Positions 6,351 through 62,063 of a DNA stretch of 64,000 bases are shown in pieces. A model generated the notes under the pieces. The model did not search any database and was not told the origin of the DNA. It saw only the letters and a program-made list of their open reading frames with translations. The stretch's first letter is position 1; each line of letters opens with the position of its first letter. A program made the translations under genes and the position numbers. The DNA comes from an uncultured Desulfobacteraceae bacterium (GTDB lineage Bacteria; Desulfobacterota; Desulfobacteria; Desulfobacterales; UBA11574): the NCBI GenBank assembly GCA_964591175.1, contig CAZQAF010000009.1, positions 7,619-71,618 of the forward strand, written 5' to 3'.

Positions 6351-6367
6351 TGCAAAAACCGTACCAA
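6351..6367 (-). promoter_or_regulatory. sigma54 promoter for the diguanylate cyclase
   Basis: Minus strand reads TTGGTACGGTTTTTGCA (GG-N10-GC). Confidence 0.75.
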
Positions 6368-6479
6368 ACCTTGTTTGCGGGCATTTATGGCAATTAACCA
6401 ATTGATTTTGAAGAATATATACATTATAAATAGATAAAATAACTATCGGTTTCTTGGTTCGTTCTTTTAAGGAAATAAA

Positions 6480-6495
6480 TGTCAAGTTATTGACG
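6480..6495. promoter_or_regulatory. Candidate enhancer (FleQ-box-like) between divergent sigma54 promoters
   Basis: TGTCA-AGTTAT-TGACG; the same motif occurs at 10342 and 26432. Confidence 0.55.
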
Positions 6496-6636
6496 CATTT
6501 GATGATCTTGAAGGCAAACGGAATATTTAACGTGTCGGCTATCAAACGGCAAGTTATCCGTCGGAGCTGTTCTCAGGCATTGTCATTTTCGTCCCGGATC
6601 GTGTAGATGTTGAACAGCATCAGGGATTGAAAGATA

Positions 6637-6652
6637 TGGTACGATAGTTGCA
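6637..6652 (+). promoter_or_regulatory. sigma54 promoter for the PilZ gene
   Basis: TGGTACGATAGTTGCA (GG-N10-GC). Confidence 0.75.
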
Positions 6653-6709
6653 TATTTTTTTTAAAATTTTGTTTTGACTTTCTTCATTTTAGCGACAAGG
6701 GTGACGACT

Positions 6710-7282
6710 ATGCCTCAAGTTGAGAGACGATCTTATGTCAGAGGGAATTTTTCTTTTAAAATTAAATTTAAAACAATGACTTCAGATGAATATGAAGCGC
6801 TATTAAATTCCCGCGAGCCCCATTTTTCACAATTTCAAGAAGAACATGGTTTTACTGCCGTAGACAAGGTTGAAAATGTCGATACATCAGTTGATGCTTC
6901 ATTGATGAATTATATGGTAAAAATTGATGAAAAACTGGATCTCATTTTAGAGTTATTGATAAAGGATAATGAGCCAGAGGATCTTTTTGAGCAAGGGATA
7001 GGGGTAAATATCAGCGGCTCTGGCATGAACATCATGGTGGATGAGCCTGTTGAAACCGGGCAGATCATCCATTCAAAAGTTTATCTTTCAAGAATGCCGA
7101 TTGTATTTTTGGATGTATTTGGGGAAGTTGTCCGTTCATCTGAAATAAGTGAATGCGATAAGAATGTCTATTCTTTGGGGATAAGGTTCTTGGATCTCAG
7201 CGTGAATGACCAAGAAAAAATTATCGCGATGGTATTTAAAAGGCAAAGAGGTGATCTAAGAAAGAGAAAAAAAGGGTCCTGA
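6710..7282 (+). CDS. PilZ-domain c-di-GMP receptor
   Basis: RRSYVR (RxxxR) and NISGSG (D/NxSxxG) motifs; ATG at 6710 after AAGGGTG. Confidence 0.85.
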   Translation: MPQVERRSYVRGNFSFKIKFKTMTSDEYEALLNSREPHFSQFQEEHGFTAVDKVENVDTSVDASLMNYMVKIDEKLDLILELLIKDNEPEDLFEQGIGVNISGSGMNIMVDEPVETGQIIHSKVYLSRMPIVFLDVFGEVVRSSEISECDKNVYSLGIRFLDLSVNDQEKIIAMVFKRQRGDLRKRKKGS

Positions 7283-8885: not shown

Positions 8886-10274
8886 ATGGCAAAAATTTTA
8901 ATCGTTGATGATAATCCGGAAGTGTTGAAACTAATTGCCAGTATACTGGAGACGAATGAGTATGAGGTAGAAACGGTGTCCATGGGAGAATCGGCGATCA
9001 AAAAACTGGAGAGCAATGATTATGACATGGTGTTAACCGACCTTATGATGCCGGATATAGACGGCATGCAGGTTCTTGAGCATGTGAAATCAAAAGCATC
9101 CAGAACCATGTGCATTATCCTTACGGGCCATGGAACCATTAAAAGTTCAGTCAAAGCCATTAAAAAAGGTGCTTTCGATTATATCACAAAACCGGTTTCC
9201 CCCAGCGAACTTCTTATTATTGTTGAAAAAGCCCTTAAATTTAAAAACCTTGAAGAAGAGAATATAAGGCTTAAAAAAGAATTAAAGGGAAAATATCATT
9301 ATAAAAATATTGTTGGAACCAGTCAGGCCATCAAGAAAATATACGATCTTATCGAAAAAGTATCTGATACGGACGGAACCGTTCTGATCACCGGCGCCAG
9401 TGGCACAGGTAAGGAGTTAATTGCAAGATCGATTCATTACAACAGCCAGAGGAGTGATAAACCGCTTGTTGTTATTAATTGTGGTGCTGTTCCTGAAGCC
9501 TTGTTGGAAAGTGAACTTTTCGGCCACGAAAAAGGTGCGTTCACAGGAGCCTATAAAAAAAGGATCGGTCGATTTGAGATGGCCAATGGCGGAACTGTTT
9601 TTCTCGATGAAATCGGAGAGATGAGCCCTGCATTGCAAATAAAACTGCTGAGAGTATTACAGGAACAGCAATTTGAAAGAGTGGGCGGAACAAAAACCAT
9701 CCATGTGGATCTCAGATTTATCGCGGCTACCAATAAAAATCTGACGACTGCCATTAATATGGAAAAATTCAGAGAGGATCTTTATTATCGATTAAATGTC
9801 ATTCCGATCAAGGTGCCGTCATTAAAACAACGGAGATCGGACATTCCTTTGCTAATCGATTTTTTTCTCAAAAAATTTCAGAAAATAAAAAATAAAAAGA
9901 TAACCGGTTTTTCTCAGCCTGCTATGGATTCAATGTGGGCGTATGACTGGCCCGGAAATGTCAGAGAGCTTGAGAATGTCATAAAAAGGCTTACAATCCT
10001 TTGTGAAAGCCCGGTGGTGAACATGGATGATCTCCCTGAAAATATACGAGATGTCAGCGGAGCGAATCCGTCGGACGAGGAAGTTATCCTCGGGGATGAA
10101 TTAAATCTTAATGAAGCGGTTCAAGATTATGAGAAAAAGATTATCCTTGAAGCCCTGGAAAAGACCAACTGGGTAAAATCTAAGGCCGCAAAGCTTCTGA
10201 ATATTAATCGGACAACCTTGGTGGCAAAGATCAAAAAACAGAATATAGAAATCGATAAAGCCGCTTCTGCTTAA
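8886..10274 (+). CDS. sigma54-dependent response regulator (REC-AAA-HTH), FleQ/FlrA-like master regulator candidate
   Basis: [31 protein letters not shown]; [12 protein letters not shown] resembles FleQ/FlrA RRTTLVEK; REC Asp is intact. Confidence 0.9.
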
Positions 10275-10341: not shown

Positions 10342-10357
10342 TGTCAAAAAAATGACA
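10342..10357. promoter_or_regulatory. Candidate enhancer (FleQ-box-like)
   Basis: TGTCA-AAAAAA-TGACA, about 205 bp upstream of the sigma54 promoter at 10564. Confidence 0.55.
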
Positions 10358-13294: not shown

Positions 13295-14644
13295 TTGAAG
13301 ATGATTAGGAAGAAAATATTACTGGCCGACAACAATCTCAACGGCCGGTCGCATGATATCTGCAAGTTATTTTTTGAATCTGGCTATGATGTTAAAACTG
13401 CTGACAACGGCCGATTGGCTTATGAAGAGATCGTCAAAGATCATTATGATCTTGTTCTAACCGACCTTAACTTGGCCCAGATAAACGGAATCAGCCTGTT
13501 AAAGAGAATAAAGGATTTCAATGCAAAGCTTCCTGTCATTCTCATAGCTGATGAAGCCTGTATCAATGATGCGGTTGAAGCAATGAAACTTGGTGCCAAT
13601 GACTTTTTGTTGAAACCCTTATCGTCCAAAATGATAGATTTGATCCATTCTTACATTGAAAACGGATTGAACGTAAAAGAAAAAAATGATGCCAAAAAAC
13701 GATTCAAGATTGTTACGCATAATAAAAATATGAAAAATCTGCTTCAGGTGGCAAGAGATATCGCCGACAGCAAGGCTTCCGTTTTTATTCAGGGAGAATC
13801 GGGAACCGGAAAAGAACTTTTTGCCAGATACATTCATCAGTTCAGTTCAAGGAAGGATCAGCCGTTTGTGGCAGTCAATTGCGCTGCATTGCCGGAAAAC
13901 CTGCTTGAAAGCGAGCTGTTCGGACATGAAAAGGGTGCATTCACCGGCGCGATTTCAAGGAAAAAAGGTAAATTTGAACTGGCCAATCATGGGACGCTTC
14001 TTCTGGATGAGGTCAGCGAAATGGATTATCAGCTTCAATCCAAGCTCTTAAGAGTATTACAAGAAAGAGAGATCGACAGGATAGGTGGCATGCAGCCGGT
14101 TCCCATTGATGTCCGATTTCTTGCCACGACAAACCGGGATATCGAAAAGCGAATCAAAGATGGAAAGTTCAGAGAGGATCTTCATTATCGATTGAATGTT
14201 ATGCCAATTCATTTGCCTCCGTTACGGGAAAGGAGAGATGATATTCCCTTGCTTGCAATGCATTTCGTCGAAAAATGCTGCAAGTTGGAAAATCGATCTG
14301 TCAAAGGGTTGACGGATGAGGCTATGGTTTCTTTGATGGAAATGACGTGGAAGGGAAATGTCAGGGAACTGGAGAACATCATTGAGAGAGCCGTTTTAAT
14401 GTGCAAGGGGGATATATTAGACAAAAAGGACTTGTTTCTTCCTGAAAGTGATCGACAATCTGATGTTACGAAACCATCGACGGTTCCGCCGGTCTCTTTG
14501 AAAGAGATTGAAAAAAGTGTCATTTTAAACACATTGGATCAAACAAATGGGAACAGAACTCATGCGGCTGAAATCCTGGGAATAAGCGTTCGGACATTGA
14601 GAAATAAAATGAATGAGTATCGAAAAAAAATGGAGATGCACTAA
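13295..14644 (+). CDS. sigma54-dependent response regulator, FlrC/FleR/FlbD-like
   Basis: GESGTGKE, GAFTGA, WKGNVREL; HTH LGISVRTLRNKMNEY is typical of FlbD/FlrC; lies directly upstream of flgB. Confidence 0.9.
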   Translation: MKMIRKKILLADNNLNGRSHDICKLFFESGYDVKTADNGRLAYEEIVKDHYDLVLTDLNLAQINGISLLKRIKDFNAKLPVILIADEACINDAVEAMKLGANDFLLKPLSSKMIDLIHSYIENGLNVKEKNDAKKRFKIVTHNKNMKNLLQVARDIADSKASVFIQGESGTGKELFARYIHQFSSRKDQPFVAVNCAALPENLLESELFGHEKGAFTGAISRKKGKFELANHGTLLLDEVSEMDYQLQSKLLRVLQEREIDRIGGMQPVPIDVRFLATTNRDIEKRIKDGKFREDLHYRLNVMPIHLPPLRERRDDIPLLAMHFVEKCCKLENRSVKGLTDEAMVSLMEMTWKGNVRELENIIERAVLMCKGDILDKKDLFLPESDRQSDVTKPSTVPPVSLKEIEKSVILNTLDQTNGNRTHAAEILGISVRTLRNKMNEYRKKMEMH

Positions 14645-23993: not shown

Positions 23994-24683
23994 ATGTCAA
24001 TACCATCAGTAAATACAAGTTACGGCACATCATCGACAACCAGTGACCAAACATCTTCAAATTCCGGTACGGACAAGCTGGGCATGGATCAGTTCCTTAA
24101 CATGTTTATTGCCCAGTTGAAGAATCAAGATCCGCTGAACCCCATGGACAGTGCGCAATTCACCGCCCAATTGGCGCAATATTCCAGTGTAGAGCAACTG
24201 TATGGGATGAACAGCAAATTGACGGATATTGAAAATGCGCTGAGCAGTCAGAACCAACAACGCGATGATTTGGGTTATATCGGCAAAACCGTTAAGGCGG
24301 ATGATAACACTATGACCGTTACTAACGGGACGGTTCAAACCGGCAGTTACAGCTTGGATGGCAGCGGAAATGTCACCATCGATGTTTACGACAGTCAGGG
24401 ACAGCAGGTTCGAACGCTTTATCAGGGCGCTGAAGATAAAGGCGAACATGAGTTAAATTGGGACGGAAGGGATGATGCCGGGAACATGGTCGCAGACGGA
24501 ACTTATACTTTCGAGATTACCGCACAGGATGGAATTGGTTTGACTGTCCCTTCAAACACCTACATTTCCGGGGAGGTGACGGGCATCACCTATAAAAACG
24601 GTCAGCCTTATCTCATGATCGGAGATAAACTGCTCGACAGCAGCAAAGTTATCGAAGTCACTCAAACAACGGCAAATAAATAA
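23994..24683 (+). CDS. flgD: Hook capping protein FlgD
   Basis: FLNMFIAQLKNQDPLNPMDSAQFTAQLAQYSSVEQL; WDGRDDAG. Confidence 0.96.
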   Translation: MSIPSVNTSYGTSSTTSDQTSSNSGTDKLGMDQFLNMFIAQLKNQDPLNPMDSAQFTAQLAQYSSVEQLYGMNSKLTDIENALSSQNQQRDDLGYIGKTVKADDNTMTVTNGTVQTGSYSLDGSGNVTIDVYDSQGQQVRTLYQGAEDKGEHELNWDGRDDAGNMVADGTYTFEITAQDGIGLTVPSNTYISGEVTGITYKNGQPYLMIGDKLLDSSKVIEVTQTTANK

Positions 24684-24696
24684 GGAGGGAAATAAA

Positions 24697-26184
24697 ATGT
24701 CTTTATCAAGTTCACTATTTTCAGGGATTAGCGGGCTGAGCACCCTTGGCAACGCCATGCAGATTATCGGAGACAACATCGCAAATGTCAATACGGTAGG
24801 GTTCAAAAGCAGCCGGGTGACCTTTCAGGACGTACTGAGCCAGACCGTGGCCACCACGTCGGGAAGCGCACAGGTCGGCCGCGGGAGCAGCCTGGCGGAT
24901 ATTTCCAGTACGTTTTCCCAGGGCTCTTTCGAGTCCACCGATTCCGCAACGGATCTGGCCATCGGCGGCGAGGGCTTTTTCGTTGTTAGGGACCCGAACA
25001 ATGCAAACAACGAATACTACACTCGTGCCGGTGAATTCCGCTTTGACAAGGACGGCAACTTCGTCAATCCGGCCGGATACATTGTCCGCGGCTGGGCCCT
25101 GGACCCCACCACGGGTCAGGACTACGGCTCGATGACGGACATCACCATGTCGTCATTTACATCGTCGCCATCGGAGACGCAGAAGTTGACGGCCATCACC
25201 AACCTGGATTCCGATGCCACGAGCCAGACGACGAATCTGGAAACCGCATGGGACGCCACCAACCCAACGCCGATTGCCTCTACAGCCTATGAATATCAGA
25301 CCACCGTGAAGGCCTACGATTCGTTGGGAAGCACCCACGATCTCACTGTTTACTATGACCGCACCGACACAGACGGTCAATGGGAATATATCGTCACGTG
25401 CAATCCTGATGAAGATGCCCGCGCCGGCGCCGTAGTATCAGGTACGCCGACAAAGGGTGCGGGGCTTTTGGCCCGGGGGACCATCGATTTCGTGGCTGGT
25501 TCGGGCACCATTTCGGGCATGACTATGGAGCGTTTCGATCCGAACAATCCGGACAATATCGGTACCGGCACCGATGGCTCGGCCGCGGACAACGCGGCAA
25601 CATGGGACTCGGTGGTGGACCCCGACAGTTGGCAAACGGCTGAAACTCCCGATGCAAATGGTTATCTGGCCTTTCAGCCGGAGTTCATCAATGGTTCCCC
25701 GATGTCCGTAGAACTGAACATCGGAGCCCGCAATGACGGGACGAACTGGGTTCCTGATTCCTTGTCTTCGAGCCAGTATTCCTCGGCATCCACCACCGTT
25801 TTTCAGTCCGCTGACGGCTACGGCGCCGGGGATCTGCAATCGGTTTCCGTGGATACGGACGGCGTTATCACCGGGCAGTATTCCAACGGGCAGGTCCTCC
25901 CGTTGTATCGCGTTGCCTTGGCCAAGTTTCAGAACAACGACGGCCTTTTTAAGGTAGGCGGCAACCTCTGGCGGGAGACCCGGCTCAGCGGTGATCCGAT
26001 TACGGGTACGCCGGGATCCAACGGCACGGGAAACATTTCGGCAAACTCCCTCGAGCAGTCAAACGTCGATATCGCCAACGAGTTCGTCAAAATGATTACC
26101 ACCCAGAGAGGATTCCAGGCCAATTCAAAAATCATTACCGTAACGGATCAAATGCTTGCGGACCTCATCAATATCAAACGATAA
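24697..26184 (+). CDS. flgE: Hook protein FlgE
   Basis: GDNIANVNTVGFK, DLAIGGEGFF, YTRAGEF, SLEQSNVDIANEFVKMITTQRGFQANS. Confidence 0.97.
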   Translation: MSLSSSLFSGISGLSTLGNAMQIIGDNIANVNTVGFKSSRVTFQDVLSQTVATTSGSAQVGRGSSLADISSTFSQGSFESTDSATDLAIGGEGFFVVRDPNNANNEYYTRAGEFRFDKDGNFVNPAGYIVRGWALDPTTGQDYGSMTDITMSSFTSSPSETQKLTAITNLDSDATSQTTNLETAWDATNPTPIASTAYEYQTTVKAYDSLGSTHDLTVYYDRTDTDGQWEYIVTCNPDEDARAGAVVSGTPTKGAGLLARGTIDFVAGSGTISGMTMERFDPNNPDNIGTGTDGSAADNAATWDSVVDPDSWQTAETPDANGYLAFQPEFINGSPMSVELNIGARNDGTNWVPDSLSSSQYSSASTTVFQSADGYGAGDLQSVSVDTDGVITGQYSNGQVLPLYRVALAKFQNNDGLFKVGGNLWRETRLSGDPITGTPGSNGTGNISANSLEQSNVDIANEFVKMITTQRGFQANSKIITVTDQMLADLINIKR

Positions 26185-26420: not shown

Positions 26421-26458
26421 ATCGAGGCAAATGTCAGGATTTTGACATTTGCCTCGAT
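26421..26458. promoter_or_regulatory. Perfect 16-bp inverted repeat containing a FleQ-box-like TGTCA-N6-TGACA site
   Basis: ATCGAGGCAAATGTCA-GGATTT-TGACATTTGCCTCGAT, about 125 bp upstream of the sigma54 promoter at 26574; could also act as a terminator hairpin. Confidence 0.6.
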
Positions 26459-47049: not shown

Positions 47050-48819
47050 ATGGCCGGCATCGGAATGGTATTAGATATTGCGACCACTGCTTTAAGCGCT
47101 CAGCAGCAGAGCATAAATGTTACGGCCCACAACATCGCGAACGTCAATACAGAAGGGTATTCGCGGCAAAGTCCGGATCTTGAAACAAAACAGCCGATGA
47201 TGACGAATGGATTGATCATGGGTAGAGGGGTCAATGTCGATCAGGTGACTCAGGCCGGTGACCGGTTTATCGAAAACAGGCTGATGCAGGAAAAATCGAA
47301 CCTGTCGTCCTCATCGGAAATGGAAAAATACATGCAGGTCCTGGAAGGGTACTTTAATGAAAATTCCGATACCGGACTCAGCACCATGCTGACCGATTTC
47401 TGGAATGGATGGTATGATATTTCCAACAACCCGTCCGGTGCGGCAGAAAGGAGTTCGCTTTATGAACACAGCGCGCTCCTTGCAGAAAAATTTAATGAAT
47501 CGGGAAATGATTTAACCCAGGTTGAATCGGATTTAACCAATGCCGTGAGTTCCGGAATAGAAACGATTAATCAAATCACCAATCAGATCGCCCAGCTCAA
47601 TAATCAGATCGTGGGCATGGAGGCAGATAACACCGCGAATGATCTCAGAGACAAACGCAATGCGCTTGTTTCGAAACTCAATGAATACCTCGATGTCAAA
47701 ACCTTTAATCAGAGCAATGGCTCTTTGACCATTATCACTGCAAAGGGCTGTACCCTGGTTCAAGACAGCAGCAGCTATGAGCTGGAAATGGGCGGTTCCA
47801 ACGGAGACAGGGTCATCTGGCAGGATTCCAGCGGCAGAGATGTCGATATCACAGACGATGTCAACAATGGAAAACTTGGCGGCTGGCTCGACATGCGGGA
47901 CGAGGCTGTCGGTAAATATCAACTGGATCTCGATGCGCTGGCCAAAGAATTTATCTGGTCCGTGAACCAGCAACACAGTCAGGGGGTGGGGTTGGAAGGA
48001 TTCAGCAGCGTCACGGGAAGCAATGTGGTATCGGACACAGGAAAAGGACTCGGAACCTTTGATTCCGGCCTCGACTACTCTGACAAAATGATTGACGGCG
48101 CTTTTAATCTCTGGATATATGATGCCAACGGCGACGTCGTTGGCGGATCCGCCAATCCGATCACGATTGATGCAGGTACAACCACCCTTACCGACCTTCG
48201 TAATAAAATAAATACGGCGGCAACAAATATTAGCGCTCCAATCACTGCTTCCATTAGCGATGGAAAATTAACGATCGATGCCGGCAGCGGATATACATTT
48301 GCCTTTTCCGATGACACCAGCAATGTTCTGGCAGCCCTTGGGATCAATACTTTTTTCACCGGTTCCAGTGCCGGCAACATGGGAGTCAACGATGCTATTG
48401 GTTTGAATCTTAATAATATTGCCGCAGGCCAGGTCGGAGATGATGGCGCGATCGCCGCAGGAAGCAATGTCAATGCGTTGGCCGTCACCGATCTTCAAAA
48501 CACGAAGATTAGTATTTCTCAATGGACCTGTGACAGGATCAACGGAAACACGGAAGGGAGAACCACATCAACAATCGAAGACTATTATCATTCCATGGTG
48601 GGTGCCATCGGCATTGCTTCTGCAAGTGTCTCCAGAGACAAAACCTTTAGCGAAACAATGGTCAATGAGATAAGCAGTATCAGAGACAGTATATCGGGTG
48701 TTTCGCTTGACGAGGAGTTGACAAACCTTATAAAATACCAGCATGCCTATGCGGCGGCGACCAAGCTTATCAGTACCTCGGACGAGATGCTCAGCACGCT
48801 GCTCGAGGTGAAGAAATAG
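47050..48819 (+). CDS. flgK: Hook-associated protein FlgK
   Basis: TAHNIANVNTEGYSRQ, NDLRDKR, ISGVSLDEELTNLIKYQHAYAAA. Confidence 0.96.
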   Translation: MAGIGMVLDIATTALSAQQQSINVTAHNIANVNTEGYSRQSPDLETKQPMMTNGLIMGRGVNVDQVTQAGDRFIENRLMQEKSNLSSSSEMEKYMQVLEGYFNENSDTGLSTMLTDFWNGWYDISNNPSGAAERSSLYEHSALLAEKFNESGNDLTQVESDLTNAVSSGIETINQITNQIAQLNNQIVGMEADNTANDLRDKRNALVSKLNEYLDVKTFNQSNGSLTIITAKGCTLVQDSSSYELEMGGSNGDRVIWQDSSGRDVDITDDVNNGKLGGWLDMRDEAVGKYQLDLDALAKEFIWSVNQQHSQGVGLEGFSSVTGSNVVSDTGKGLGTFDSGLDYSDKMIDGAFNLWIYDANGDVVGGSANPITIDAGTTTLTDLRNKINTAATNISAPITASISDGKLTIDAGSGYTFAFSDDTSNVLAALGINTFFTGSSAGNMGVNDAIGLNLNNIAAGQVGDDGAIAAGSNVNALAVTDLQNTKISISQWTCDRINGNTEGRTTSTIEDYYHSMVGAIGIASASVSRDKTFSETMVNEISSIRDSISGVSLDEELTNLIKYQHAYAAATKLISTSDEMLSTLLEVKK

Positions 48820-51822: not shown

Positions 51823-53454
51823 CTATCTTTTCCTGCGAACTACCCGACGTCTGACGACTCTCCTGCGAGGCTTTTGAGGCAAAGACGCGGTTGTGTTTGT
51901 GTTTTGAGTTGCCGAATCTGTCTGCTCTTTTCGATTCTCCGATTTGTCCGGGCGTATTTTTTCCCAATAACGGCATGTTGCCCTCGGGCATTTCAAACTC
52001 GATATCCCAGCCTTGTTCGACGTTTCAATTAAAAATGGATTGTTGCATTTGGGGCATTGAATATGATGGGGTTTGCCCCAGCTGATGAAGCTGCATTCTT
52101 TGTTTGAGCACTTGTAATACGGTTTTCCAGTCGCCGTATTTTTGACCTTTAGCTTCGATCGCCTGCATATGGGGCATTCTAATGCCAGATCTTCTTCAAA
52201 AGCCGTAATACGTTTTTCAATGTCATCGTCATTTTCCGTCGGGAGAGTGGCGGAGTTTATAATGGAATCTTCCTTTTGAAATGGTGTTTCCGGATTATCT
52301 TCGATGATTTCTTTCACGGATTCGCTTTTCTCTTGGTGTAAAACTGTATTTGGAAAAGCAATTGGGTCATCGTAAAATTTGCTTTTGTCCTGTTCAATCG
52401 ATTTCAGATCCTGTGAAGTATCTTCTGCAAAAGAAATAGAATCATGGCCGGGTATATTTGATGTGGATGCGTCAAACCTATCGATAGGATCATCTGAATC
52501 AGTCTTTATTGGTTCTTCCAAAGATATTGTTAAGTCAGTATCGAGCTTTTGTGATTCATCGGCATTATGAGGCGATGTTTCTATTGATTGATCAGATGTT
52601 TGTGGTTTCTCAATTTCAATATGTTCATGTCTGTCCGAGGAGGTTTTATCGGGTTTGATTTCTTTTAATCCGGATTCACCAAAATTGAGTTTTGTGATTT
52701 TTGTTTTTCCATTGTAGGCATCGGAAGATAGCACTTTAGGTTCATTGGACGAACCTTTGGCGTGATCGAGAAGAATATCTCGCGATTTCCGACCAAGAAT
52801 CGAAGTCGTTTTCAATTCTGTGTTCAAAGATATTTTTTTGTTATTTTGCGTGGCGTTCTTAAACCTTCGGGTAGGGACGCTTTTATCAGGAAGTTGACGG
52901 GAAATCTTTGGGGGGGTATGTGCCCGTGGATCTTTTTCCAAAGGAATGCCTTGCATTTGTAAAATTTGGTCAAATTGATCCGCCGCCGAATCGATATCTT
53001 TTCGGCCGGATTTTACTTCATCCAGTGTTTGGACAAAATAGGCGATCAGGTTCATACCGGGCATTTTCGGGAAGACCAGATCCATAAGACGGGCCATACT
53101 TACCGTGGGTTTTTGAGGGATAAGTCTGTCGCCTTCGGCCCGGATATAGTTTTTTTGAATCATGTTTTCGATAACGACATTCATATCCTGATCGTCTCTA
53201 AGTCCCATGTCTTCAACATCTTCTATTAATGTTTCATGAGTATAACGATCATTTTCATCGGGAACAAAACCTTCTATCCCGTTTTCTCGTTCCATGAGCA
53301 GCGTAATGATAGAGATGGTTAAGGGATTCAAGATCAGTTCTCCAATCCCAAACCGGCTTCCGATCAAACGTTCCAAATGGTTAAAGAAAATCTCATTGAA
53401 TTGATCGATCACGTCAGGTTTTTTGTTTGCATCATCTATTTGCATTTTTTCCAA
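51823..53454 (-). CDS. Hypothetical protein with an acidic linker and C-terminal topoisomerase-type C4 zinc ribbons
   Basis: CPIC..YYKCSNKEC, CPKC...LKCPRATC, then an Arg-rich tail RRRVVRRRVVRRKR; no TOPRIM or catalytic topoisomerase domain seen. Confidence 0.8.
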   Translation of the reverse strand: MEKMQIDDANKKPDVIDQFNEIFFNHLERLIGSRFGIGELILNPLTISIITLLMERENGIEGFVPDENDRYTHETLIEDVEDMGLRDDQDMNVVIENMIQKNYIRAEGDRLIPQKPTVSMARLMDLVFPKMPGMNLIAYFVQTLDEVKSGRKDIDSAADQFDQILQMQGIPLEKDPRAHTPPKISRQLPDKSVPTRRFKNATQNNKKISLNTELKTTSILGRKSRDILLDHAKGSSNEPKVLSSDAYNGKTKITKLNFGESGLKEIKPDKTSSDRHEHIEIEKPQTSDQSIETSPHNADESQKLDTDLTISLEEPIKTDSDDPIDRFDASTSNIPGHDSISFAEDTSQDLKSIEQDKSKFYDDPIAFPNTVLHQEKSESVKEIIEDNPETPFQKEDSIINSATLPTENDDDIEKRITAFEEDLALECPICRRSKLKVKNTATGKPYYKCSNKECSFISWGKPHHIQCPKCNNPFLIETSNKAGISSLKCPRATCRYWEKIRPDKSENRKEQTDSATQNTNTTASLPQKPRRRVVRRRVVRRKR

Positions 53455-53992: not shown

Positions 53993-54008
53993 TGGAACGA
54001 GTTTTGCA
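53993..54008 (+). promoter_or_regulatory. sigma54 promoter
   Basis: TGGAACGAGTTTTGCA (GG-N10-GC). Confidence 0.7.
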
Positions 54009-54080: not shown

Positions 54081-56006
54081 ATGGCATCTGTTATAACATT
54101 GACAGGCATCGACCAGGCCTTATCGCAACTAAAATACGCCAGCGAGATGACCTTGAAATATAGATTCGTAAAGACCGTAAGAGATTACTATGTCGATGAT
54201 AATTCTCTGGCCTCGCTGAGAAAGATCGAACATGCATCGTTGATAAAGCTGTTGTGGGATACGCAGGACGATCCCGAAATTATCAAAAATAAACGAAAAA
54301 ACTTGACTGGATTAAGATCATCGGTCAATGCGGATTTAAAAAAACTTTATGAAAACGGTTTAAATCCCGAAGGGATAAAAATCGGTCCGGACAATATATT
54401 TGTCATGTCCGAAAATGCAAAGGATAATATTCTTAATCAGTTCGGATATGAGTTGCAGCCGGATGGAACACTTAAATTAGACCAGATAATGGATATCCTG
54501 AAGGTGGCCAATGAAACCGTATCCGGTGCATTGAGTGTTGAAGATGCAACAACAAAGGACGATTTAAGTAAAAAAGATCAGTTAAAGGACCTAATTAAAC
54601 GATTATCGGAAAAGTTGGGTTTGGGTAATCCGGAATTTCCAAAGGCAGGTATCGATCCTGAAAATAAACCATCTGAATCACGGGTTTCGGTTGATGGTGT
54701 TGACAAGACGGTCGATATTGGAGCTGTCGATGAGGATGAAGATTTATTTGAGGTGCAGGATGATGAAGATGGGGAGGCTGTTGAAGAAATTGGAGATGTC
54801 ATAGAAGATGAGGTCTTGGATGAGATTGTGGATGTTGCTGAAGAAGACATGTCGGATATTGCTAATGAAGAAATATTAGATGATGTTGAAGATGTCGTAA
54901 CGGACGAAATTGAAGATCTATATACGGAAACGATTTCCGGCGAGGAGGAAATAGATGATATTCTCGAAAATGCAGCCGGTGATGAGGATTCGGAACCTGA
55001 GTACATTGAAGTTGATGAAGGTGATGGTTTAGGCGATGGTTTAGGCGATGGTATCGCAGGAGCGACGGCAGATGAATTCGGAGACGGAGGGAATGAAAAA
55101 GAAGCTGAACAACTGGGACTTCCCGCTGACTCTTTAGGTCAGGAATATGGATCTGAAAAAGAGACGAAATTAAAAAAAGACAAACTTCTTGCTGAAGCGT
55201 TCGACGGATATTTGGGATCCATGGACCGATATTATAATCATTATATCTTGATCGACGGCGGCCAATATTTAATTGGCAGCAGGCATCCAAAAAAGGGTGA
55301 AGAACTTGAAAAGATGATAATTTTGGAACCTTTTTATTTCGGCCGATTTCCGGTCACCAATGGACTTTTTGAAATATTTGTAGAAAAAACAGGATACAAA
55401 ACCACCGCAGAAAAGGTTGGATATGGAACCGTGTATTATGGAAGGTTTGAAAAGAGAAAAGATGATCAAACAGGATTGCTCACTTCCAGATGGAATTCTT
55501 CCCTTTATTGCAGTGAGGTTAAAGGCGCGTGCTGGTATCGTCCATCCGGCCCGGAAAGCACGCTCCACAACAAAAGAGATCATCCCGTGGTCCAAATCAG
55601 CCTGGAAGATGCCTCAGCATTTGCAGCTTGGACCGGAAAACGGTTGCCCACCGAAAGCGAGTGGGAGGCGGCATCCAGAACCGCAAAGGGATGGACATTT
55701 CCGTGGGGGCATGAATGGATAAATGATGCCGGTAATATTGAAGATAGCGGTATCGCGGACACGACGCCTGTGGATAAGTATGCTGAATTTGAAAATGACT
55801 TCGGAATCGTTGACGTCTTGGGAAATGTTCTGGAATGGACGGACAACGGTTTTGAAACGACGTCTCAAGAAAACAATGCGTCAAACTATCGAATTGCCAA
55901 GGGCGGAAGCTGGGTGTCCGGAAATGATATCCGCCTTTTCAGTCGCTTTAAACTTAAGCCGGATTCACATTCAAATATTCTCGGTTTCAGATGCGTTGCA
56001 TATTAA
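54081..56006 (+). CDS. FGE-sulfatase (SUMF1/PvdO/GldK-like) fold protein with an N-terminal domain and a long acidic linker
   Basis: FYFGRFPVTN, HPVVQISLEDA..FAAW.GKRLPTESEWEAA, LGNVLEWT, GGSW, LGFRC. Confidence 0.88.
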   Translation: MASVITLTGIDQALSQLKYASEMTLKYRFVKTVRDYYVDDNSLASLRKIEHASLIKLLWDTQDDPEIIKNKRKNLTGLRSSVNADLKKLYENGLNPEGIKIGPDNIFVMSENAKDNILNQFGYELQPDGTLKLDQIMDILKVANETVSGALSVEDATTKDDLSKKDQLKDLIKRLSEKLGLGNPEFPKAGIDPENKPSESRVSVDGVDKTVDIGAVDEDEDLFEVQDDEDGEAVEEIGDVIEDEVLDEIVDVAEEDMSDIANEEILDDVEDVVTDEIEDLYTETISGEEEIDDILENAAGDEDSEPEYIEVDEGDGLGDGLGDGIAGATADEFGDGGNEKEAEQLGLPADSLGQEYGSEKETKLKKDKLLAEAFDGYLGSMDRYYNHYILIDGGQYLIGSRHPKKGEELEKMIILEPFYFGRFPVTNGLFEIFVEKTGYKTTAEKVGYGTVYYGRFEKRKDDQTGLLTSRWNSSLYCSEVKGACWYRPSGPESTLHNKRDHPVVQISLEDASAFAAWTGKRLPTESEWEAASRTAKGWTFPWGHEWINDAGNIEDSGIADTTPVDKYAEFENDFGIVDVLGNVLEWTDNGFETTSQENNASNYRIAKGGSWVSGNDIRLFSRFKLKPDSHSNILGFRCVAY

Positions 56007-56049
56007 GCAAACACTCTTTTGTGAAATGTTTGGCGGTTTTCTCCATATC

Positions 56050-56065
56050 TGTCAATAATTTGTCA
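56050..56065. promoter_or_regulatory. Variant FleQ-box-like site upstream of pilB
   Basis: TGTCA-ATAATT-TGTCA (1 mismatch), about 110 bp upstream of the sigma54 promoter. Confidence 0.35.
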
Positions 56066-56175
56066 TGGTTGATATCGCATAGCCGATCTCAACAGGCGAT
56101 TAAAACCAATTTATCTAACTGATATCATGCACAATTGGAAACTTTCATTGAACTTTACCCAAGTCCGTAAAAAAG

Positions 56176-56192
56176 TCGGCACATAAGTTGCA
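56176..56192 (+). promoter_or_regulatory. sigma54 promoter of pilB-HDOD
   Basis: TCGGCACATAAGTTGCA (GG-N10-GC). Confidence 0.75.
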
Positions 56193-56340
56193 AAAGCTGC
56201 ACAATGATCCAACCCTATTTGAACGTTTGTGAAAAAATTTCGTAACATTTCTACTGGTAAGGGTTATTAAAGTACCTAATTAGCATATTCGTATGTATCT
56301 AAATACATACCGGACTTGAAAGGCTTCGCAAAAAAAAGAA

Positions 56341-58578
56341 ATGGCCAAACCAATACCTATGAAACGTGATACCTCGACAAGTTCCAGGAGATCGAGCTTA
56401 AAATCGACGATTATGGATCAATCCGGGGCCGGGAAAACCAAGATCGGCGAACTTTTATGTAAAGAAGGCTACATCACCGGTACCCATCTCGAAGACGCGC
56501 TGAACTATCAGAAAAAAAATAACGGACGTTTGGGTCATATCCTTATCAAACTCGGATACATTGATGATGAGACCATTGTAAATGTTCTGAGCCGTATCCA
56601 CAACTATCCAGCCGTTAAAATATCCAACACAACTCCGGAGCCGGAAGTTTTAAAAATCATGCCGTATGAAACGGCCAAAAAGTACATGGCTTTTCCTCTG
56701 AGATTTAAAGGAGAAGAGCTTGTCGTTACAATGGCGGAACCTACGGATACTACCGCACTGGATAGTTTGCAGAACGAGGTCCATAAAAGTATCAGTGTTT
56801 GTGTCTCTACCGAAAAAGATATTGTCGATGCCTATAAATCCCACTATGAAGTAAGTGATGAAGAATATAATAGCTTCTTCGGCATAAAAGATGATGTTAG
56901 TGAGGAAGAACAGACGGTTTCAGTCGTCGACGACTTCGGTTCGCTGGTTTCCGAAGCCGTGGTTGATATGGAACTGGTAGGAGATGAGGATGAAAAGGGC
57001 GTTGTCGATGAGTATACGGCTTCTGATGCGCCGATTATCAAACTGGTGAACGGTATTCTCGTTAAGGCGATTAATGAGGGGGTCAGCGATATTCATATCG
57101 AACCCTTTGAAAAAATGCTCCAGGTGAGATATCGTCTGGATGGATACTTGTTTAAATCCATGAACCTGCCGACCAGCATCAAAAATGCGGTAAATTCCAG
57201 GTTGAAAATTTTAGCCGGACTCAATATCGCCGAGCGTCGTGTGCCCCAGGACGGCAGAATCAAGATGGCTTTTGGTAAAAGAAAAACCATTGATTTTCGT
57301 GTGTCGACATTGCCGACCCTGTTTGGTGAAAGCATCGTCATGCGTGTTCTCGACCAGTCATCGCTGAGAGTAGATCTTACTCAGATGGGTCTGGATGTTG
57401 AAGCATTAAAATCACTTGAACGGTGCGTATATCGTCCCTATGGACTGCTGCTTGTTACCGGTCCGACAGGCAGTGGTAAAACAACGACATTGTACTCGAT
57501 TCTGAATAAGCTGAATAAAGAAGACTGCAAAATACTGACCGTGGAAGATCCCGTGGAATTCAACTTCAAGGGAATCAATCAAGTCCATGTCAAGGATGAA
57601 GTGGGCATGACGTTTGCCGCCGCTCTGAGATCGTTTTTGCGGCAGGATCCGGATATCATCATGGTGGGTGAAATTCGAGACCACGAAACAGCGGAGATTG
57701 CCATCAAAGCGGCCATGACAGGACATCTCGTCTTCAGCACCTTACACACCAATGACTGTCCCTCTACAATAGGGCGTATGGTAGATATCGGCATACCGTC
57801 TTATCTTTTGGCTTCCGCGGTGACGATGGTCCTTTCCCAACGATTGGTTCGAAGGCTTTGCCCGCAATGCAAGACTTTGGAGCAAAGTCTCAATCCGGCG
57901 GAACTTGTGGAATTGGGATTTTCTCCCCACGAAATTTCGGATCTTAAAATATACGGTCCCAAAGGCTGCCCGGAATGCATGGGATCGGGTTATAGGGGCC
58001 GAGTGGGTTTATTTGAACTGATGGAAGTTACGGAGAATGTCGCCAATATCATCAGCGCCAATGTTACGGAGGATCAATTGAGGAAGGCGGCGCTGCAGGA
58101 AGGCATGATGACCTTAAGGGAAGCGGGTTTGGAAAAAATTCGCCAGGGACTGACCTCGGTCGAAGAAGTTTTGAGAAGAACCAATTTAACCAAGGGCGCC
58201 ATTCCTGCATACATTGCCAGTCCGGAAGTTGAGGAATATGACAGTAAAGCTGTAATTTTCCGGGAAGGGAATAGAGGGGCTGATTTTTTTAAGCTGGTCA
58301 AAGGTGAGCTGGTTGTCGTAAGAGAAGGGAAAAAAATTGCCGAAATCGTTCAACCCGGTGACTATTTTGGAGAAGTTGCCGCCATAACCGGAAAAGAAAG
58401 ATCAGAGACCGTGATTTCAAGGGGAAAGTCCATTGTCGAGCGGTACCCCGGCGACAAATTGAATGAAATTGTCGACAAATATCCTAAAATTACCTCAAAG
58501 ATACTTGAACAAATGGCCGGCCGTATAGATGCCTCAACAAAAATCATTGTCAACCTAATGAATCAACAAGTACGATGA
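56341..58578 (+). CDS. pilB: PilB/GspE-family assembly ATPase with N-terminal MshEN and C-terminal cNMP-binding domains
   Basis: AERRVPQDGR, GPTGSGKTT, LRQDPDIIMVGEIRD, HLVFSTLHTND, CPQC/CPEC; C-terminal IFREG...YFGEVAAI...RSETV. Confidence 0.9.
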   Translation: MAKPIPMKRDTSTSSRRSSLKSTIMDQSGAGKTKIGELLCKEGYITGTHLEDALNYQKKNNGRLGHILIKLGYIDDETIVNVLSRIHNYPAVKISNTTPEPEVLKIMPYETAKKYMAFPLRFKGEELVVTMAEPTDTTALDSLQNEVHKSISVCVSTEKDIVDAYKSHYEVSDEEYNSFFGIKDDVSEEEQTVSVVDDFGSLVSEAVVDMELVGDEDEKGVVDEYTASDAPIIKLVNGILVKAINEGVSDIHIEPFEKMLQVRYRLDGYLFKSMNLPTSIKNAVNSRLKILAGLNIAERRVPQDGRIKMAFGKRKTIDFRVSTLPTLFGESIVMRVLDQSSLRVDLTQMGLDVEALKSLERCVYRPYGLLLVTGPTGSGKTTTLYSILNKLNKEDCKILTVEDPVEFNFKGINQVHVKDEVGMTFAAALRSFLRQDPDIIMVGEIRDHETAEIAIKAAMTGHLVFSTLHTNDCPSTIGRMVDIGIPSYLLASAVTMVLSQRLVRRLCPQCKTLEQSLNPAELVELGFSPHEISDLKIYGPKGCPECMGSGYRGRVGLFELMEVTENVANIISANVTEDQLRKAALQEGMMTLREAGLEKIRQGLTSVEEVLRRTNLTKGAIPAYIASPEVEEYDSKAVIFREGNRGADFFKLVKGELVVVREGKKIAEIVQPGDYFGEVAAITGKERSETVISRGKSIVERYPGDKLNEIVDKYPKITSKILEQMAGRIDASTKIIVNLMNQQVR

Positions 58579-59660
58579 AAATAGACTGTCCAGTTTGCCA
58601 GAAGGCGTATAAAATTCCAGACGATAAACTCCCGTTCGGTAAAAAATTTTCAGTGCAGTGTTCGTCTTGTAAAAAAAAGATTGTCATCGATTTGCGCGCT
58701 ATAGCAAAACCGAATAAACCGGATAAATCGAAACCGGTCCCTGACGCCAAGAAAAAAACACCGATCGCCCCGCCTGCTCCTGATGCGTCTTTCGGGAAAA
58801 AACAACCCTCCGGCATGACATTGAAATACGGCATCCTTCGAACCATGGACGATTTGCCGGCAATGCCGCACGTGGTTCAAAAAGCGCAGGAAATCATGGC
58901 AAGATCTGATTCAAACGTCAAGGAGCTTGCCAAGATCATTGAAATAGAACAGGCTATCTCGACCCGGGTATTGAAAATGGCCAATTCAGCATATTACGGT
59001 TTGAGCGGGAAAGTTTCTTCCGTTCATCATGCCTCGGTGCTGCTTGGGTTTAAAACGCTTGGAGAACTGGTTTCAGTTGCCGGCATTTCAAATCTGATGA
59101 GCAAGGATTTGAGCGGATACGGACTCGATTCCGGGGATCTCTGGCGTCATTCCATTGCTGTTGCTTTTGGATCAAGAATCATTGCAAATCGAAAGGATGC
59201 TGATTTCGGGAACCAGGCCTTTTTTGCCGGTCTTATTCATGATGCCGGCAAGCTGGTCCTCAATCCATATGTTTATGAAAGAAAAGATGCTTTTGATGAA
59301 TTCATGGCGAACGGTGGCCAGACTTATTTAGTTGCCGAAAAAACGATTCTTGGATTCGATCACTCTGAAATCGCCTTTGAGTTATGCCAGAAATGGAAAA
59401 TTCCTACTGACCAAAGCCAAGCCATAAAGTACCATCATACGCCTTCGCGATCAGACGGCAATGAACTGGCTTTTATCCTTCACATAGCGGATTACATTGC
59501 CATGATAAATGGTTATCATTCGGAAACAGACGGTGCGGATTATCCGGCGGAGGATGGGGCCATGGATTTTTTAGATCTTAGAGAAGAAGATGTCGAAAAT
59601 ATAAAGAATGACGTTCATGAATCCGTAGAAAAGATCTTGCAAGAGGTGCATGCCGATTAA
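58575..59660 (+). CDS. Zinc-ribbon and HDOD domain protein
   Basis: CPVC..CSSC N-terminus; LPAMP, VLKMANSAYYG, LWRHS, GLIHDAGKL, GFDHSEIA; ATGA overlap with pilB. Confidence 0.92.
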   Translation: MKIDCPVCQKAYKIPDDKLPFGKKFSVQCSSCKKKIVIDLRAIAKPNKPDKSKPVPDAKKKTPIAPPAPDASFGKKQPSGMTLKYGILRTMDDLPAMPHVVQKAQEIMARSDSNVKELAKIIEIEQAISTRVLKMANSAYYGLSGKVSSVHHASVLLGFKTLGELVSVAGISNLMSKDLSGYGLDSGDLWRHSIAVAFGSRIIANRKDADFGNQAFFAGLIHDAGKLVLNPYVYERKDAFDEFMANGGQTYLVAEKTILGFDHSEIAFELCQKWKIPTDQSQAIKYHHTPSRSDGNELAFILHIADYIAMINGYHSETDGADYPAEDGAMDFLDLREEDVENIKNDVHESVEKILQEVHAD

Positions 59661-59779
59661 TCTGAAAGACCAAGCATTCTTCGCAGCTTTGATCTTTCAG
59701 TCATCAATCGATATTTCCCGGAATATGAGAAGCCGATTCGCGACATGCTGGAATAGCTATATTAAATGATTTTCGGATA

Positions 59780-60238
59780 TTAGTTTTTCAAATAAAATCC
59801 CAAATCTTTTTCGAGCGATTTCGGATTGTCAAACTGTGCGCCGATATTGCGATCGATGATCCATTTTATTTTGACGATTGTTCGGATTTGCGTTTTCTGT
59901 GGATTGTCCAGAATAAACTTCAATTCAAGGATATCTTTTCTGGAAATCTGGTGTGGTTTAAGACTGGCAAATCGGATTCCGGTTGCTGAAATGTCTTCGA
60001 TAAAGATCTCTCCTGTTTCATCCTTTCCCTGAACAAAGTATTCACCGGCCAGCCGGACATTTTTGCGGTAATACTTTCTGAAATCCAAGGTGAACCGGAA
60101 AACCTCGCCACATTTACATTTGGCTTTCAGCCGCTTTGACGTATCCTTAAATTTAAATACATTTTTAATTGTTTGGAATCCGCATTTGGGACAGCTTAAC
60201 TTTACCTGGTTGGTATAGTCTACATAAATTTTTTTCAT
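59780..60238 (-). CDS. Zinc-ribbon and PilZ domain protein
   Basis: CPKC..CKC N-terminus; RKYYR (RxxxR) and DISATG motifs. Confidence 0.85.
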   Translation of the reverse strand: MKKIYVDYTNQVKLSCPKCGFQTIKNVFKFKDTSKRLKAKCKCGEVFRFTLDFRKYYRKNVRLAGEYFVQGKDETGEIFIEDISATGIRFASLKPHQISRKDILELKFILDNPQKTQIRTIVKIKWIIDRNIGAQFDNPKSLEKDLGFYLKN

Positions 60239-60545
60239 CTATTTCCTCGTTAATCAACATAAACGCAAGACCCACCCCTATAGGAAATGAGGTCTTTATC
60301 GATCGATAGCCGGATTTTCAGCTTCTTTTTGAGGGTCATTATCAATATGGGCCCCATGTGTTTTCATGCCGTAATGATGAATTATAATATTCTTATGTTT
60401 TTAAATCAATATAAAAGGATGATGAAATATTTATGTAAATAAAAAAATCGGGACACAAGCATTTGAATAAGTTTTGCTTTTTTGATGACATGATTAAATC
60501 CGGATGGGGGCTTTGAGAAATAATTTAAAATATGCGTTAAAGAAA

Positions 60546-62063
60546 TTAATGATCAATGTTTTCATAATAACCGATGGCACCCTTGCTGATCTTTTTGATT
60601 GAAAACAACGCTTGATCGGCTGCGTCTAAAAGGGAATCGGTATCGACAGCATGTTCGGGAAAAGTGGCGATTCCACAACTGGCTTGAAGCCGTACTGCTT
60701 TACCTTTACTGCGAAGATAAACCGACGTTTTTATCTGATATTGAATTTGTGATGCTTTGCTTGCAGCTTGGTGCTGGTTAGACCCTGGAAGAACCACGAC
60801 AAATTCATCACCGGCATAAGCGACGGCATAGGCCGGTGATTCAAGGGTACCTCGGATAGTGGCAGCAACTTCCTGAATCACGTAGCTGCCGTTTAAATGG
60901 CCATGGGCATCCACCACCTCCTTGAAATTGTCCAGATCCATGAAAAGAAGCGATAACGGGGTTTGTTGGTTTTTGGCGGCTTGGATCAATCCGGTCAAAG
61001 ACTGATAAAGAAATCGCCGGTTATAGAGGGAGGTTAAATTGTCTCTTAGCGACTGATCACGAAATTTGCGTTCGCTGGTCCGTAATGCTTCTTCGGCTTC
61101 TTTTCGCAGGGTAATATCCACCAAAGAAATTACGATCCTCGATAATGTATCTTCATGACCTGCAAGCACCAGGGCTCGAATAAGGACGATTTTCCGGTTT
61201 CCTTTTAACGTTTGAATCGTTAGTTCTCTTTCGCGTCGAATAGATCCCTGGGCCACCATCAGAATAATTTCTTCCGCCAATTGTTGGAATTCGTCGCCCA
61301 GCGCCGCCATGGGAAAATTACCCATAAAAACGTCTTTATTCGCAGCCTCCAGAAGTTCACAAAAAGCAGCATTGCAGTCAACTGTTTTAATAAGCGACAT
61401 ACAGTGCGGCACTTCTTCGGGATGCTGCTGCAGGTACTGCTTTAAATTTAAATCATCCGATTGATGAAGCTGTGCAATATAGACCTTGAGTTCAGAGGCA
61501 TCCCGTTCTATCATGGCAATTGGTGCGGACTGGAATAACAAGCGATATCGCTCTTCGCTTTGTTCGGCGGCCGCCTGGGCCAGTTTCAGGTTTGTAGCGT
61601 TTTCCACAAATGCCAAAACACCCGATGCATCACCTGCAGCATCTATGACAGGACTGATGTGAAAGCGCAACGCCAAACAATTCCCGTCATCGTTAATGCA
61701 GGAATAATCGCGAATAACGGATTGTCTGGTTTGCCAGCATCGGCGAATATCCTCACTAACGCCTGAATCAACCAGCGGTTGAAACTCAAAAATGTTCATC
61801 GATTCAGGATGTTGATCGGCAAGCCAAGGGAGCATCTTTTGTATTTTGCTATTCAGCCCGGTGATGTCCCCTTTCAGGTCAGCCGTGAAGATGCCGAACG
61901 GCGCACTCTCACCAAACAGCTGGTTCCTCTCTTCAATTGCCTTCAAGGCGGCTTCCGCCCGCTGGCAACGTTTTTGGAGTGCTTCCATTTCTGCCTTTTG
62001 GCCGTGCAATTCACTCGGTTCTGTTAGCAGATCATTCTGTGAACTTGATATAATTTCTGCCAT
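60546..62063 (-). CDS. PAS-PAS-GGDEF (AGDEF variant) diguanylate cyclase
   Basis: Two PAS-like blocks; DNLTSLYNRR, DLDNFKEVVDAHGHLNGS, YAGDEF. Confidence 0.88.
   Translation of the reverse strand: MAEIISSSQNDLLTEPSELHGQKAEMEALQKRCQRAEAALKAIEERNQLFGESAPFGIFTADLKGDITGLNSKIQKMLPWLADQHPESMNIFEFQPLVDSGVSEDIRRCWQTRQSVIRDYSCINDDGNCLALRFHISPVIDAAGDASGVLAFVENATNLKLAQAAAEQSEERYRLLFQSAPIAMIERDASELKVYIAQLHQSDDLNLKQYLQQHPEEVPHCMSLIKTVDCNAAFCELLEAANKDVFMGNFPMAALGDEFQQLAEEIILMVAQGSIRRERELTIQTLKGNRKIVLIRALVLAGHEDTLSRIVISLVDITLRKEAEEALRTSERKFRDQSLRDNLTSLYNRRFLYQSLTGLIQAAKNQQTPLSLLFMDLDNFKEVVDAHGHLNGSYVIQEVAATIRGTLESPAYAVAYAGDEFVVVLPGSNQHQAASKASQIQYQIKTSVYLRSKGKAVRLQASCGIATFPEHAVDTDSLLDAADQALFSIKKISKGAIGYYENIDH

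Follow-up and report, generated by a model that had tools for sequence, protein, structure and literature searches.

Control of type IV pili by cAMP is textbook knowledge, described as transcriptional, with Vfr/CRP as the mediator. In a 2024 review of how PilB is regulated, cyclic di-GMP (c-di-GMP) is the messenger acting on the extension motor, by way of MshEN domains, FimX and PilZ, and cAMP acting via gene expression only; the transcriptional route in Pseudomonas runs via Vfr (PMC11656802). FimX and PilZ of Xanthomonas and Pseudomonas exert second-messenger control at the extension motor (PMC8389850, PMC5595344). In those systems the adaptors are separate proteins and c-di-GMP is the only messenger. 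Here we describe a gene, pilB-cNMP, whose product instead carries both predicted sensors on the ATPase chain itself, one of them of the cyclic-mononucleotide (cNMP) type, and has an HDOD-domain protein as its conserved partner. It lies in a 64,000-nt stretch of DNA from an uncultured Desulfobacteraceae bacterium, of sulfate-reducer type and with salt-marsh sediment as its source (contig CAZQAF010000009.1, positions 7,619 to 71,618), which we refer to as the window. Our full-text literature search, with subscription-only papers outside its scope, found no description of a T2SSE/PilB–cNMP fusion.

Our best explanation, to which we assign a probability of roughly 0.6, is that pilB-cNMP encodes a PilB-class extension motor whose hexamer is allosterically gated by a cNMP at a C-terminal CRP-like domain, with a variant MshEN region perhaps adding c-di-GMP and the HDOD partner co-expressed under flagellar-type sigma54 control. 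Within this explanation we infer the identity of the ligand, the allostery, the pilus function and the shared activator.

A conserved three-part PilB fusion

The open reading frame (ORF) has exactly the boundaries assigned in an earlier note, which had been made from the sequence alone, and all peptides quoted there are present in the 745-residue product: KIGELLCKEGYITGTHLEDALNYQ (residues 34–57), RLGHILIKLGYI (63–74), IFREG, YFGEVAAI and RSETV. That note had proposed a search for the T2SSE_N + T2SSE + cNMP_binding architecture, and Pfam and NCBIfam place all three regions on this one ORF. The Pfam matches are MshEN at residues 87–172 (53.3 bits, cut-off 23.1), T2SSE at 227–612 (460 bits) and cNMP_binding (PF00027) at 631–714 (49.5 bits, gathering score 27.5), the last over profile positions 2–89 of 89. 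The NCBIfam c-di-GMP motif domain NF053729 matches residues 34–85 at 60.8 bits, against a cut-off of 38.

Solved PilBs from Myxococcus xanthus and Geobacter metallireducens (3jc8, 5tsg/5tsh, 5zfr) share with the fusion protein the N1 (MshEN/GSPII), N2 and C-terminal (CTD) domains, the catalytic boxes and the tetracysteine site. Residues 4–561 of the 566-residue M. xanthus PilB align to residues 34–614 of the fusion protein, which thus has 33 additional residues at its N-terminus and 131 at its C-terminus; neither addition occurs in those PilBs. Solved PilBs end after the ATPase domain, as the earlier note had said of ordinary PilB, and the surplus that it put at about 120 residues and called a CRP-type cNMP domain is the 131-residue region with the PF00027 match.

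Relatives share the fusion. We compared the 120 best database protein clusters, which were 69–95% identical to the window protein, and PF00027 was present in all 120. About 30 GTDB species-representative loci carry the fusion, matching through residue ∼740 at identities down to 59%, and the linker and the cyclic-nucleotide-binding (CNB) domain are conserved in frame across the family. The carriers are labelled almost without exception as Desulfobacterales, Desulfobacteraceae, Desulfobulbaceae, Thermodesulfobacteriota or delta-proteobacterial, and include one isolate, Thermodesulfobacteriota bacterium B35 (locus L025, JBKIWM010000001.1, 2.95-Mb contig). This stretch is contained in at least 20 salt-marsh metagenome runs; in three of these, independent of one another, a single contig spans the whole gene (55900–59100 or more) with 0–1 differences. 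RNA contigs from four salt-marsh metatranscriptomes cover pilB-cNMP, one of them bridging the junction between ATPase and CNB domain (57818–58232). The architecture of MshEN, PilB ATPase and cNMP domain is therefore real, conserved and expressed.

The trivial explanation would be a contig of chimeric origin, or the loss of a stop codon between pilB and a separate Crp-family gene, and the earlier note had allowed for an assembly artefact absent from relatives. No observation in its favor was found. The ORF is continuous in 120/120 clusters and in some 30 species, the contigs come from three metagenomes, and RNA crosses the junction. An artefact of assembly or gene calling is refuted by the clusters, the species loci and the spanning DNA contigs, and we leave it practically no probability. 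In databases these proteins are named simply ‘PilB’, so that the additional CNB domain is invisible in their annotations. One metagenome-assembled genome, binchicken_co89_303, has two copies of the fusion on separate contigs (L010 and L011, 76% and 79% identical to the window protein); these could be paralogues or mixed strains.

The predicted cyclic-nucleotide and c-di-GMP sites

The C-terminal domain was modelled with confidence by AlphaFold2 (AF2; residues 601–745, predicted local distance difference test score (pLDDT) 79.5). The best Foldseek match of this model was to E. coli CRP-cAMP (template-modelling (TM) score 0.68, root-mean-square deviation 2.5 Å, 124 columns, probability 1.00), a match that takes in the long C-helix. 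By sequence, phmmer paired the domain with PKG, PKA-R and CRP at E-values of 1e-15 to 1e-7. A BLASTP alignment to E. coli CRP placed its residues E72, R82, S83, T127 and S128 on E678, R687, S688, S732 and T733. The domain shares with CRP (1g6n) and with Vfr of P. aeruginosa (7ff9) the fold, long C-helix included, and its cassette residues and C-helix Ser/Thr pair align with those of CRP. Identity is only ∼25%, however, the helix-turn-helix DNA-binding domain is absent and a motor ATPase is the output on the same chain; the Vfr route is transcriptional, while here the predicted sensor is fused to the motor itself.

The phosphate-binding cassette is preserved across the family. Among 141 family sequences, G677 and R687 are each present in 141, E678 in 138 and Ser or Thr at 688 in 132, and the cassette is retained in the most distant, Desulfobulbaceae-type members. 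On this alignment the cassette is intact and under purifying selection, which is how a functional cNMP site is expected to be conserved. The cassette is compatible with both cAMP-type and cGMP-type domains.

The CRP-like domain could instead have a role other than cNMP sensing, either as a constitutive module for dimerisation or for docking a partner such as the HDOD protein, or as the receptor of some other small ligand. The CRP/FNR fold serves many non-cNMP ligands, and the long C-helix is the counterpart of the CRP dimerisation helix. Such a role would also suit the variation at positions 732 and 733 and the altered cassette of two family members. Yet the cNMP-specific cassette is nearly invariant among sequences that are only ∼50% identical in the domain, and the top sequence matches are the cNMP-binding domains of PKG, PKA-R and CRP. 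We therefore consider a non-cNMP role quite unlikely and favor cNMP binding.

The N-terminal region is a variant of the MshEN type. The published consensus consists of two copies of RLGxx(L/V/I)(L/V/I)xxG(L/V/I)(L/V/I)xxxxLxxxLxxQ separated by a 5-residue spacer (PMC5013675). As in Vibrio cholerae MshE and the GSPII-B domain of Thermus PilF, there are two 24-residue motifs with that spacing, with G3, G10, L17, L21 and the Gln of motif I in place, and the motif columns of both repeats are highly conserved in the family alignment. Motif I departs from the published pattern at K34 and I35 (K-I for R-L), at C40 (position 7) and at Y44; motif II ends in I86 in place of the ligand-contacting Gln. 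The published MshEN regular expression gave no match, in its strict or in its relaxed form. The GSPII-B domain of PilF, whose affinity is very high, tolerates Lys at the first position of motif I (PMC11731258). The terminal Gln residues are those selected in PilF for abolishing c-di-GMP binding, and that of motif II (Q61 in MshE, Q218 in PilF) hydrogen-bonds the ribose-phosphate of the ligand (PMC11731258). Motif II of M. xanthus PilB likewise ends in Gln. Across the present family, unlike MshE and PilF, this last position is mostly I, V or L, with M in the most distant members and Q at two loci; Cys at position 7 of motif I is a further difference.

The earlier note had read these repeats as a match to the tandem MshEN pattern. 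The spacing, most key residues and the NF053729 score bear this out, but the five substitutions and the failure of both published patterns do not. Binding of c-di-GMP by this region is plausible, and less secure than had been assumed.

Residues 15–33 of the N-terminal extension are kept family-wide, Desulfobulbaceae-type members included, and AF2 gave pLDDT below 50 across the extension. This predicted disordered stretch (56383–56439), which stands ahead of the MshEN motif, reads S-R-[RK]-S-S-L-K-S-T-I-x-D-Q-S-G-A-G-K. Even the remotest members of the family retain its ‘DQSGAGK’ almost unchanged, and its ‘RRSS’ resembles a basophilic kinase site.

Motor identity, promoter and proposed gating

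All ATPase motifs that the earlier note had listed as intact were located. Regular-expression searches found Walker A (GPTGSGKT) at residue 374, the Asp box (EDPVE) at 402, Walker B (RQDPDIIMVGEIRD) at 434 and the His box (TGHLVFSTLHTN) at 460; the tetracysteine Zn site is formed by CPQC at 507 and CPEC at 543. These boxes and cysteines are invariant in the family alignment. Among solved structures, M. xanthus PilB 3jc8 and Geobacter PilB 5tsg come closest (E ∼1e-159). The PilB equivalog model TIGR02538 scores 734.1 bits, above its curated cut-off of 675.65, and the GspE model 580.9 bits, below its cut-off of 630.25. In our best explanation the ATPase is, as these scores suggest, probably a genuine hexameric motor of the PilB type, for type IVa pilus assembly.

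We searched for further examples by querying 1.84 billion cluster representatives with residues 560–745. Some ten clusters gave matches that ran from the end of the ATPase into the CNB domain, and Pfam confirmed T2SSE + cNMP_binding in five of them. One, P0127 (L083:10001-11938), is a GspE with GSPE_N1E, T2SSE and a C-terminal cNMP_binding domain, encoded in a complete gspC-D-E-F-G-H-I-J-K-L-M operon (L083 7009–17849). Like the window protein it has cNMP_binding after the T2SSE core, with 41% identity over the last 186 residues; unlike it, P0127 has N1E in place of MshEN and is a secretion motor in a gsp operon rather than a PilB. This operon has a sigma54 two-component pair beside it, along with a gene for a PEP-CTERM protein. 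Another, P0131 (L081:10001-13490), is a 774-residue MshEN-PilB-cNMP protein with pilM 86 bp downstream on the same strand; pilN, pilO, pilP and pilQ do not follow. A third distant fusion gene is an orphan, and its context is that of a sulfate reducer. Since such fusions occur in genuine machine contexts, the gspC-M operon and the pilM neighbor, the C-terminal CNB module is compatible with working motors. Going by these matches, it is a rare module that recurs on genuine filament-machine ATPases.

Canonical pilB belongs to a pilB-pilT-pilC cluster, whereas pilB-cNMP is an orphan. The earlier note had seen no other pil or gsp genes adjacent, and this holds for the entire window: tblastn with GspF, the secretin GspD, GspG, PilM and the PilB ATPase core turned up no further match in its 64 kb. 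The same searches within 10 kb of the gene in 32 relatives (L001–L032) found nothing except one GspG-like gene, in L028. The ATPase might thus drive another type IV filament machine, whether like the type II secretion system (T2SS), MSHA-like or undescribed, or might mainly signal, with a separate canonical PilB assembling pili. Its orphan setting, without pil genes in the window or near close relatives, fits that alternative, as do the GspE nature of the related CNB fusion in a T2SS operon and the role reported for M. xanthus PilB in signalling for exopolysaccharide regulation (PMC5544727). It is opposed by the PilB score above and the GspE score below their respective cut-offs, by the end-to-end alignment with the type IVa pilus PilBs of Myxococcus and Geobacter, the closest solved proteins, and by the pilM gene that adjoins the more distant fusion. 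On balance we judge it unlikely and retain a pilus extension motor as the preferred function.

The claim that the gene has its own sigma54 promoter stood up at the sequence level. The -24/-12 element has one mismatch to TGGCAC-N5-TTGCW. Such sites number eight in the window, where 1.5 were expected, and seven of them, on the + strand, stand right before ORFs, namely a PilZ gene (6674–7282), the AMIN-TPR gene, fliK, motA, flgF, the FGE gene and pilB. CGGCACATATGTTGCA is identical 5′ of pilB in 11 relatives (L001–L009, L011, L029), and a twelfth, L013, has AGGCACATATGTTGCA, one base off. The element and the blocks upstream of it are kept even where the upstream gene differs.

An inverted repeat lies upstream, and an enhancer upstream of a sigma54 element is the classic layout. 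The core of the repeat, TGTCAATAATTTG, does not vary among the 11 aligned regions upstream of pilB, even where the gene before them differs, and the consensus is TGTCAATAATTTGyCA (56050–56065). The pattern occurs at eight loci in the window (13 strand hits, with 1.7 expected). All four intergenic repeats lie 127–223 bp upstream of sigma54-like sites (permutation p ∼5e-5): those of the PilZ gene, the AMIN-TPR/FlbD-like/flgB operon, motA and pilB. Two genes for sigma54 activators (bacterial enhancer-binding proteins, bEBPs) are present in the window (8886–10274 and 13295–14644); the best match of one is FlbD, below that model's cut-off. The repeat may serve as the binding site of one or the other of these two activators. 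The conserved AT-rich block between repeat and promoter could be a DNA-bending site, of the integration host factor type, or the site of a second regulator.

This layout suggests that, in this clade, one activator serves both pilB-cNMP and flagellar operons. Because the repeat is common to pilB and three other sigma54-type sites, wiring to the flagellar regulon, as the earlier note had suggested, has sequence support here, and the motor is probably produced within the flagellar, bEBP-controlled programme. This part of the claim stands for relatives at least 76% identical, to which the arrangement is confined, and not for the family as a whole.

Copies of TGTCAA-N4-TTGACA were noted at 6480–6495, 10342–10357, 14299–14314, 26432–26447, 48468–48483 and 56050–56065, lying 127–350 bp upstream of sigma54-like elements across the flagellar cluster. 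One predicted sigma54 promoter with an inverted repeat belongs to an 892-residue AMIN + multi-TPR protein (10593–13271), whose gene directly precedes flgB and the gene for the FlbD-like activator. AMIN domains are more familiar as parts of PilQ and AmiC. Within its predicted 5′ leader, pilB has a perfect 8-bp hairpin, GTATGTAT-CTAA-ATACATAC (56291–56310). It belongs to an insertion of ∼60 nt that is shared with L001 only, and in some metagenome and RNA contigs its loop is longer by one nucleotide, inserted after 56300. The csrA and fliW genes lie 6 kb upstream of it.

The mechanism that we propose would work as follows. A CNB domain was presumably gained C-terminally, after a short flexible linker. 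A 3′,5′-cyclic mononucleotide, most probably cAMP, would bind this domain and shift the position or pairing of the long C-helix. That shift would be passed on allosterically as a change in hexamer conformation, in ATPase turnover or in docking to the pilus platform. In this way the cNMP level would gate extension of the pilus post-translationally, in addition to any N-terminal effect of c-di-GMP. In the Desulfobacteraceae-like clade, pilB-cNMP would be transcribed together with the zinc-ribbon-HDOD gene from its own sigma54 promoter.

Several findings weigh against this mechanism. The pair that reads adenine in CRP, T127/S128, is matched here by S732/T733 but varies across the family, so the identity of the ligand is not readable from sequence, and L024 and L030 carry RF for RS in the cassette. 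AF2 modelled the full-length protein with no more than moderate quality (pLDDT 62, predicted TM score 0.41), and the model is mute on how the CNB domain docks. With I, V or L replacing the hydrogen-bonding Gln of motif II in almost the whole family, the c-di-GMP input is possibly weak or lost. No pilC, pilT, pilM-Q or pilin gene is found in the window or in the 10-kb flanks of the relatives, the GspG-like gene of L028 excepted, so that the assignment to a pilus depends on orthology scores. Members at most 70% identical, of the Desulfobulbaceae type, have neither the sigma54 promoter nor the flagellar neighborhood. Finally, the metatranscriptome contigs around the promoter, which are strandless and of depth 1–6, do not agree on a transcription start: two begin downstream of the promoter, at 56246 and 56278, and one crosses it (55931–56243).

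More speculatively, CNB fusions of PilB and GspE type may form an unrecognised class of type IV filament motor ATPases gated directly by cNMP. The window protein could then be a dual coincidence detector for c-di-GMP and cNMP, co-expressed with flagella (sigma54/FlbD-like) and with its HDOD partner, and serve as a post-translational switch between swimming and pilus-mediated attachment. If the cNMP sensor of this PilB works, it would be the first case of a cyclic mononucleotide acting directly on the motor of a pilus or secretion system, and its GspE sibling bears the same module in a T2SS operon. Integration of two messengers on a single enzyme would become testable by simple biochemistry. 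The sigma54 promoter shared with flagellar operons would offer a handle on the coordination of flagella and pili in anaerobic sediment bacteria.

Features and neighbors of the locus

Table 1. Features of pilB-cNMP, its upstream region and the genes downstream (window coordinates)
Feature	Coordinates	Strand	Basis or remark
Inverted repeat TGTCAATAATTTGTCA (TGTCAA-N4-TTGNCA), candidate upstream activator site	56050..56065	+	127 bp upstream of -24
AT-rich conserved block TTTATCTAACTGATATCATG (consensus ..ATATCTTATTGATATCATA)	56110..56129	+	Between inverted repeat and -24/-12; conserved alignment columns
Sigma54-type -24/-12 element CGGCACATAAGTTGCA	56177..56192	+	GG 56178-79, GC 56190-91; ∼150 nt upstream of ATG
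pilB-cNMP coding sequence	56341..58578	+	745-aa ORF
Ser/Lys/Arg-rich 33-residue N-terminal extension (…SRRSSLKSTIMDQSGAGKT)	56341..56439	+	Without counterpart in solved PilBs
MshEN-type tandem 24-residue motif (residues 34-57, 5-residue spacer, residues 63-86)	56440..56598	+	NF053729
C-terminal subdomain of MshEN/GSPII N1 domain (residues 87-172)	56599..56856	+	PF05157
T2SSE ATPase core, N2D + CTD (residues 227-612)	57019..58176	+	PF00437
CRP-like cNMP-binding domain, beta-barrel and long C-helix (residues 620-745)	58198..58575	+	PF00027, AF2, Foldseek
Predicted phosphate-binding cassette FGEVAAITGKERSETV (residues 676-691)	58366..58413	+	Aligned to CRP GELGLF..ERSAWV
MJ0042-type zinc-ribbon + HDOD protein, 361 aa	58575..59660	+	Pfam HDOD 168 bits, Zn_ribbon_4
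PilZ-domain protein (RKYYR … DISATG), Cys-rich N-terminus, convergent	59780..60238	-	Pfam PilZ
PAS-GGDEF diguanylate cyclase	60546..62063	-	Domain matches

The window is a large flagellar cluster, encoding FliD, FliS, FlgB, FliK, MotA, FlgF, FlgN, FlgK, FlgL, CsrA, FliW and a lytic transglycosylase. Locally the order is an FGE-sulfatase-domain gene, pilB-cNMP, the zinc-ribbon-HDOD gene, the convergent PilZ gene and the PAS-GGDEF gene. The start of the HDOD gene overlaps the pilB stop codon by 4 bp (ATGA), and an HDOD gene is found 3′ of pilB in L001–L003, L006, L008, L009, L013–L015, L029, L031 and L084. At L014:591-19168 there are four HDOD-domain genes around pilB-cNMP instead of one. The PilZ and PAS-GGDEF neighbors are retained beside the module in L001 only.

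The arrangement of flagellar genes, FGE gene, pilB and HDOD gene is common to relatives at least 76% identical. In Desulfobulbaceae-type members the gene lies instead between formate-tetrahydrofolate ligase and glycosyltransferases. A single neighborhood for the whole family is thereby ruled out, the order being confined to the Desulfobacteraceae-like clade. Two upstream neighbors of pilB-cNMP are conserved in close relatives. The first is a 641-residue protein (54081–56006) with the C-terminal FGE-sulfatase domain and a 380-residue N-terminal part lacking any assignment; its gene has its own sigma54-like site at 53993–54008. The second is a 543-residue protein without family match (51823–53454, - strand).

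Genes of c-di-GMP signalling are unusually dense around the flagellar cluster, at 3218–7282 and 58575–62063. The first group comprises a REC-type response regulator (3218–4726), whose best match is a NosR-family c-di-GMP phosphodiesterase model, below the model cut-off; a GGDEF gene (4738–6228, - strand); and a PilZ gene with its own predicted sigma54 promoter (6674–7282). The second consists of the HDOD, PilZ and PAS-GGDEF genes listed in Table 1. A spike in G+C content at 24001–26000 (0.535, compared with ∼0.40 around it) coincides with an ORF of 495 residues within the flagellar cluster (24697–26184).

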